Virus record (IMG/VR): IMGVR_UViG_2529292906_000020
Location: 1 to 22,254 of that record
Reading direction: 5' to 3' (one strand)
Length of the DNA stretch: 22,254 nucleotides
Source of the DNA: a virus
Taxonomy: Duplodnaviria; Heunggongvirae; Uroviricota; Caudoviricetes
Positions 18,066 through 18,326 of the stretch are shown here, piece after piece (position 1 is the stretch's first letter; each line of letters starts with the position of its first letter). The translations under genes were made by a program, and so were the position numbers. Under the pieces are notes generated by a model that had not been told where the DNA came from, searched no databases, and was given only the letters and a program-made list of their open reading frames with translations.

Positions 18066-18326
18066 ATGGCCACTTTAACAAAAAAGAACGGGCATGGTTG
18101 AATGAATTACAGGACGTTCTTGATCGCTGTCCATCACCAAAAAAATTGGTTTTTACACCATTGGCGATAAAACCATTTACCTGTATGACCTACGCCGCAT
18201 GGATGAAATCATGGAGGCTCTTGATAATCGTTCGTCGATGGATTGGTGTGTTGCTGTCCATGATATGAATGCAGGGTTTGATGAAAAGATTTTGTTCCCC
18301 TCATCAGTTGAAAGCACTGCGGGTTA
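18066..18326 (+). pseudogene. Frameshifted small gene: strong RBS and ATG, then an 11-codon ORF; a protein-like reading continues only after two -1 shifts at A-runs
   Basis: AAGGAG 6 nt before ATG 18066; frame hits TGA at 18099; -1 frame open from the A_AAA_AAG site (18080-18086) and another -1 frame open from the A7 run (18139-18145) to TAA 18324-18326. Confidence 0.45.

Follow-up and report, generated by a model that had tools for sequence, protein, structure and literature searches.

Programmed −1 frameshift sites of the dnaX and IS911 type join an A_AAA_AAG heptamer to a Shine-Dalgarno-like (SD-like) element upstream and a stem-loop or pseudoknot downstream, and the orfAB genes of IS3-family elements, in which an A-run ends the upstream ORF, carry the ALIL pseudoknot (RF01497) as a conserved stimulator together with a conserved two-ORF layout. 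Frameshifts in A-runs can also be rescued by transcriptional slippage at long A/T tracts, and in the known cases of Shigella mxiE and the poly(A) tracts of endosymbionts the tracts are about nine bases or more and are conserved. Apparent frameshifts at A-runs are likewise produced by homopolymer under-calling of the 454, Ion Torrent, and nanopore type in draft or long-read assemblies, and gene copies affected in this way are labelled 'frameshifted' by PGAP.

The locus described here lies in a 22,254-nucleotide stretch of viral DNA (the window), which was traced through a rare methyltransferase allele to bases 2-22255 of the draft contig AIFV01000017.1 (169,833 nt; assembly GCA_000249595.2), with exact identity over every base compared; from its accession series we take this assembly to be one of the 2012 DEC collection drafts. 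The elements of the locus are as follows.

18054-18059 (+): Shine-Dalgarno sequence AAGGAG of the 87-aa gene, 6 nt 5' of the ATG at 18066; read from the sequence and kept in homologs
18066-18327 (+): 262-nt copy, with its frame disrupted, of a conserved gene that is 264 nt long and encodes the 87-aa protein PHROG 1714; from the composite translation and homologs
18066-18101 (+): zero-frame stub MATLTKKNGHG (11 codons) followed by TGA at 18099-18101; from translation
18080-18086 (+): site 1, with A6G in place of the A7G of intact homologs (ACA AAA AAA GAA, encoding T K K E); from alignment
18139-18145 (+): site 2, with A7 in place of the A8 of the closest relatives (CCA AAA AAA ATT, encoding P K K I); GA7 is found in most other alleles; from alignment

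Direct reading bears out the preliminary description of a ribosome binding site and an ATG at 18066 opening an 11-codon ORF, and of a zero-frame A_AAA_AAG at 18080-18086 followed by an A7 run at 18139-18145. The zero frame at site 1 reads ACA AAA AAG, which places the heptamer in register, and the −1 frame entered there stays open through site 2, which it reads as A_AAA_AAA; the second −1 frame then continues to the TAA at 18325-18327. The end had been given as 18326 and the product as about 86 aa, and while two −1 frames do reach that point, the stop codon ends at 18327 and the three segments joined by two −1 shifts amount to 87 aa. The GenBank annotation of AIFV01000017.1 holds only a 38-aa fragment at this locus, and no database record matched the 56-aa ORF in the other frame exactly.

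The composite protein aligns with the PHROG 1714 profile, a family annotated as of unknown function, over positions 1-87 of 87 (E = 1.6e-50), and no Pfam family was found for it. It is identical to the translated intact CDS WP_000224229.1 of strain NMBU_W05E18, and relatives carry a single uninterrupted 264-nt CDS at the matching position, annotated as a hypothetical protein (WP_000224229, WP_000224233, WP_000224220, and WP_000224227), whereas the window copy requires two frame changes to be read through. The position is conserved, between an Ead/Ea22-like gene upstream (17528-18064, with its TGA at 18062-18064) and a DUF551 gene downstream (18338-18850) in the early-left operon; DUF4222, xis, and an integrase gene adjoining yecE lie farther downstream in this lambdoid prophage. 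About 980 complete E. coli genomes carry the gene intact as a single reading frame, as do at least 120 contigs of IMG/VR. It is likewise intact in all 24 of the contigs read that encode an identical upstream 178-aa protein. Among 118 copies extracted from IMG/VR contigs, by a pattern that fixed the A-run bases and so leaves codon counts within the runs uninformative, 116 have an intact single-frame ORF, and variable sites fall 8/5/26 at codon positions 1/2/3. PHROG 1714 thus represents a real gene, an ordinary single-frame gene of the early-left region of lambdoid and P1-like prophages.

Alignment of the DNA locates the difference precisely: homologs have A7G where the window has A6G, and A8 (in the closest relatives) or GA7 (in other alleles) where the window has A7. 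The layout is not a matter of chance, but is precisely this known 264-nt gene minus one A in each of two A-runs. The preliminary description had itself named, as the finding that would point to a pseudogene or an error, homologs with a single uninterrupted frame and different A-run lengths, and this is what the relatives contain, their runs being one base longer.

Programmed recoding, in which ribosomes would shift to the −1 frame twice to express the gene, first at A_AAA_AAG and next at A_AAA_AAA, draws on real properties of the locus. Read in the incoming frame, each site formally fits the heptamer pattern X_XXY_YYZ, two −1 slips restore the family protein exactly, and the ribosome binding site of the gene is good. 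The heptamers nevertheless arise automatically once one A is lost from consecutive AAA-AAA lysine codons: ACA AAA AAA GAA minus one A becomes ACA AAA AAG AAC, leaving A_AAA_AAG in frame as a by-product and not as an evolved signal, and when CCA AAA AAA ATT loses an A, the shifted frame reads A_AAA_AAA. Because a −1 slip at a run that has lost a base must recreate the ancestral protein, neither the slippery motif nor the protein-like reading beyond it counts as independent evidence for recoding.

The tests for programmed FRAMESHIFTING at 18066-18327, covering folding, Rfam matches, SD-like spacing, and conservation of the layout, were all negative. The 60-nt segments downstream of the two sites fold at −11.5 and −10.5 kcal/mol, with z = −0.6 for both against shuffled sequence, and the 40-nt segments give z = +1.1 at site 1 and −1.2 at site 2, so that neither site has a recognizable downstream stimulator. 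An Rfam scan of 17950-18450 returned nothing, even at E ≤ 1, whereas the same library recovers a true −1 stimulator in the insertion sequence 2 kb downstream. There is no SD-like element 10-14 nt upstream of site 1, the sole GGAG (18056-18059) being 20 nt away and belonging to the initiation ribosome binding site, and none was found upstream of site 2. A frameshift layout is not conserved among the homologs in complete E. coli genomes or IMG/VR, which are single-frame, and none of the 1,186 copies in complete E. coli genomes is short at both runs. Two unstimulated shifts in series would also be expected to give a very small yield. The locus thus shares with the dnaX and IS911 type a heptamer in the zero frame, but differs in having no structure, no correctly spaced SD-like element, and no conserved layout, in deriving from a single ancestral frame, and in needing two shifts. 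It resembles the transcriptional-slippage cases in having its frameshifts in A-runs, but its tracts are of only 6 and 7 bases and its state is private to one record. Recoding is rejected as the explanation of the locus, and we regard it as almost certainly wrong; of the options originally proposed, a pseudogene and a homopolymer sequencing error remain live, whereas recoding is refuted by the single-frame homologs.

To place the window allele among others we surveyed sequence collections by word-11 blastn and by exact patterns. The gene is carried by 994 complete-genome records (979 E. coli genomes, 1,186 copies), and a 102-nt query holding the double-short allele, on the window background and on two other backgrounds, found no copy at 100% among the 1,186; the best complete-genome matches reach 98.1% (102/104 columns) and differ solely by the two gaps. 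Four complete-genome records among these copies are short at a single run, one of them annotated 'frameshifted' and adjoining another frameshifted gene. Validated exact patterns in IMG/VR gave at least 120 copies intact at both runs, one short at site 1 only, three short at site 2 only, and none short at both, and the doubly short allele is also absent from GTDB representative genomes and JGI metagenomes. A look-up with the integrase fragment of 354 aa recovered only short contigs that fall short of the locus. Elsewhere the double-short state was found only in the phage vB_EcoM-813R1 and the draft ADUQ01000085.1, on two different allele backgrounds; the window allele is private to draft GCA_000249595.2.

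These counts bear on whether the A-runs might form a phase-variable contingency switch, in which selected slippage toggles the gene, perhaps with leaky transcriptional or ribosomal rescue. Contractions do recur at exactly these two runs, and on more than one allele background. Against this, at 7-8 bases the tracts are short, a simple switch could not be made of two tracts in series, and none of the loci aligned shows a gain in tract length. On and off variants are not frequent, since single-short copies number four records among 1,186 copies in complete genomes and, in IMG/VR, four beside at least 120 intact ones; no more than a few percent of copies are off-variants, concentrated in low-quality assemblies, and double-short copies were found solely in draft or error-prone records. 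We consider a contingency locus very improbable, and find it no more credible that the Lys-Lys A-runs are in vivo slippage hotspots that time and again switch the gene off in lysogens, while the leftover heptamers permit, by unstimulated slippage of ribosome or polymerase, a trickle of full-length protein.

Comparison of the source contig with its closest relatives shows how isolated the two deletions are. Between 15739 and 19685 the window has no substitutions relative to strains NMBU_W05E18 and U1, and from 20994 to 22254 it is 100% identical to relatives, so that the two missing A residues are the sole differences in about 5.2 kb relative to two complete genomes. Both lie in the longest class of runs, the ancestral A8 equalling the longest run in the window. 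A search of about 32 kb of the source contig brought up no further 1-nt indel specific to it; covered were eight other window runs of at least 7, three more such runs in a 10-kb piece of adjoining chromosomal backbone, and roughly 30 runs of 6. All eight of the other window runs match near-identical relatives, the backbone has no gaps and 20 mismatches relative to its closest relative, and its runs of at least 6 all agree with the majority of assemblies. Where single-base differences do occur, at 1103, 10989, 16918, and 17348, the defect is on the side of the relatives, whose genes are annotated there as frameshifted. An in-frame 6-nt tandem repeat (GATGAA-type) at 15413-15418 has one more unit in the window than in NMBU_W05E18, U1, and isolate 30602_6#35.

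The annotation of AIFV01000017.1 omits or truncates several intact small genes at about 18899-19572 of the window; the excisionase gene (19336-19572) is uncalled, and of the 80 aa of the DUF4222 product only 47 aa are annotated. Because intact genes go uncalled in this record, a missing annotation within it is no evidence of gene loss.

The cleanness of the contig is an argument for a genuine and very recent pseudogene, in which replication slippage would have taken one A from each run in a defective prophage. With no other homopolymer discrepancy in about 32 kb, it is notable for this reading that both hits lie within one gene, as is expected if others are purged or if the second is neutral, and the second would indeed be neutral once the first had killed the gene. 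The prophage is already decaying, its int gene being interrupted by a 1,310-bp IS3-family element, and single-short alleles occur at low frequency elsewhere, in four complete genomes and four IMG/VR contigs, although at least one of these adjoins another annotated frameshift and may therefore be an error. Against a pseudogene stand the zero substitutions in the surrounding 5.2 kb relative to two complete genomes, and the fact that the allele is shared by no independent assembly. At the mutation rates known from E. coli mutation-accumulation experiments, such a pair of deletions is improbable without a mismatch-repair mutator episode. We regard a genuine pseudogene as a possibility to be taken seriously, though a tentative one.

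The quality of the two other double-short records is informative. Phage vB_EcoM-813R1 (ON470617.2, a published P1-like phage) differs from pNord122_1 over 82 kb by 65 one-base deletions, which cluster in homopolymers, against 10 in the opposite direction. The many genes split in this record include those for the C1 repressor, PacA, RdgC, Hin, SimC, a tail fibre, and a large methylase, and the record appears to be in need of homopolymer polishing. Draft contig ADUQ01000085.1 (GCA_000188835.2) differs from strain E2855 over 6.1 kb by six homopolymer deletions and a single substitution, and the only two runs of at least 7 in that 6.1 kb are both among the deletions. That the two runs are contracted together in two error-ridden records indicates that they are the first to fail under homopolymer-prone sequencing.

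Another assembly, that of Nord58 (NZ_CP139846.1), shows a comparable pair of one-base deletions within another gene: its Ead/Ea22-like gene has T4 reduced to T3 and G5 to G4 (window positions 16918 and 17348) and is annotated as 'frameshifted'.

We weighed sequencing error against mutation as the source of the window allele. Each poly-A run is one base short in the record (A7 to A6 and A8 to A7), in the preferred reading through homopolymer under-calling in draft GCA_000249595.2, contig AIFV01000017.1, and we put the probability that under-calling caused both deletions at roughly 0.6. The nature of the changes, both of them homopolymer contractions in the longest run class, appears to favour an assembly error, as does the recurrence of the double shortening only in two demonstrably error-ridden assemblies. 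Since the two deletions are the sole differences in about 5.2 kb, hardly any time is left in which two real mutations could have arisen independently, and at known rates two slippage events before any substitution in 5.2 kb seem less likely than two residual consensus errors at A7 and A8. The pair of −1 events is uncompensating and would not have been selected for.

Some observations count against an error. The source contig is otherwise clean over about 32 kb, the two error-ridden records fail at short runs too, and two random errors falling within one 264-nt gene would be a coincidence of a few percent; had Illumina been the sole platform, runs of A7 or A8 would very seldom be miscalled. The locus resembles known homopolymer under-calling in its one-base contractions confined to A-runs of at least 7 and in the 'frameshifted' label given to such copies, and is unlike it in that no other such error occurs in 32 kb of the contig. 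Sequencing error, rather than mutation, is nonetheless most likely the cause of the two deletions. If the runs were under-called, the strain itself probably has an intact gene, translated in the ordinary way.

Two other explanations were considered and rejected. The deletions are not compensating frameshifts, as two −1 events sum to −2 and leave the frame unrestored, and gene conversion from another prophage copy does not fit a background identical to that of NMBU_W05E18 and U1 with no substitutions.

The same prophage does contain a programmed −1 site, within the insertion sequence that interrupts int.

19686-20995: IS3-family element, 1,310 bp, with target-site duplications TCT at 19683-19685 and 20996-20998
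19740-20066: IS orfA
20063-20953: IS orfB

This element, presumably IS629-like, is inserted 58 nt into the prophage int gene with a 3-bp target duplication. Around its A6 run (20058-20063) Rfam identifies the ALIL pseudoknot RF01497 at 20021-20137 with 121.5 bits. The locus at 18066-18327 is like this orfAB arrangement in having an A-run that ends an upstream ORF, in the same prophage, but the IS site has both the 121.5-bit conserved stimulator and the conserved two-ORF layout, and 18066-18327 has neither. Genuine programmed −1 frameshifting in the window belongs to the insertion sequence, at its A6 run, 2 kb downstream of the locus.

Several RNA features were also noted elsewhere in the window.

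1495-1685 (-): STnc100 sRNA match, 139 bits
1765-1838, 1855-1928, and 1939-2011 (-): three tRNA genes, Arg, Arg, and Ile according to relatives
11900-11987 (-): C4 antisense RNA match
12012-12088 (-): isrK Hfq-binding RNA match

The STnc100 match and the three tRNA genes adjoin one another in the prophage late region, downstream of the gene for the Q antiterminator. The C4 and isrK matches lie beside or inside a Rha/Ash-type regulator gene (11282-12145), and the region has the appearance of an antirepressor immunity module of the P1/P7 kind, here within a lambdoid prophage. Close by, the segment 11639-11838 is mosaic and divergent from all three close relatives.

The locus described here is a broken copy, of an ordinary kind, of a phage gene that is conserved in a single frame, and it is most probably an artefact of draft assembly. 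Neither outcome, an assembly error or a pseudogene, is novel, and if the deletions are real they add merely one more decaying gene to a prophage already disrupted by an insertion sequence. The case carries a caution for genome scans that flag 'canonical' frameshift sites: the loss of a single base within AAA-AAA lysine codons yields a textbook slippery heptamer, and such scans of draft genomes will therefore pick up artefacts and fresh pseudogenes.
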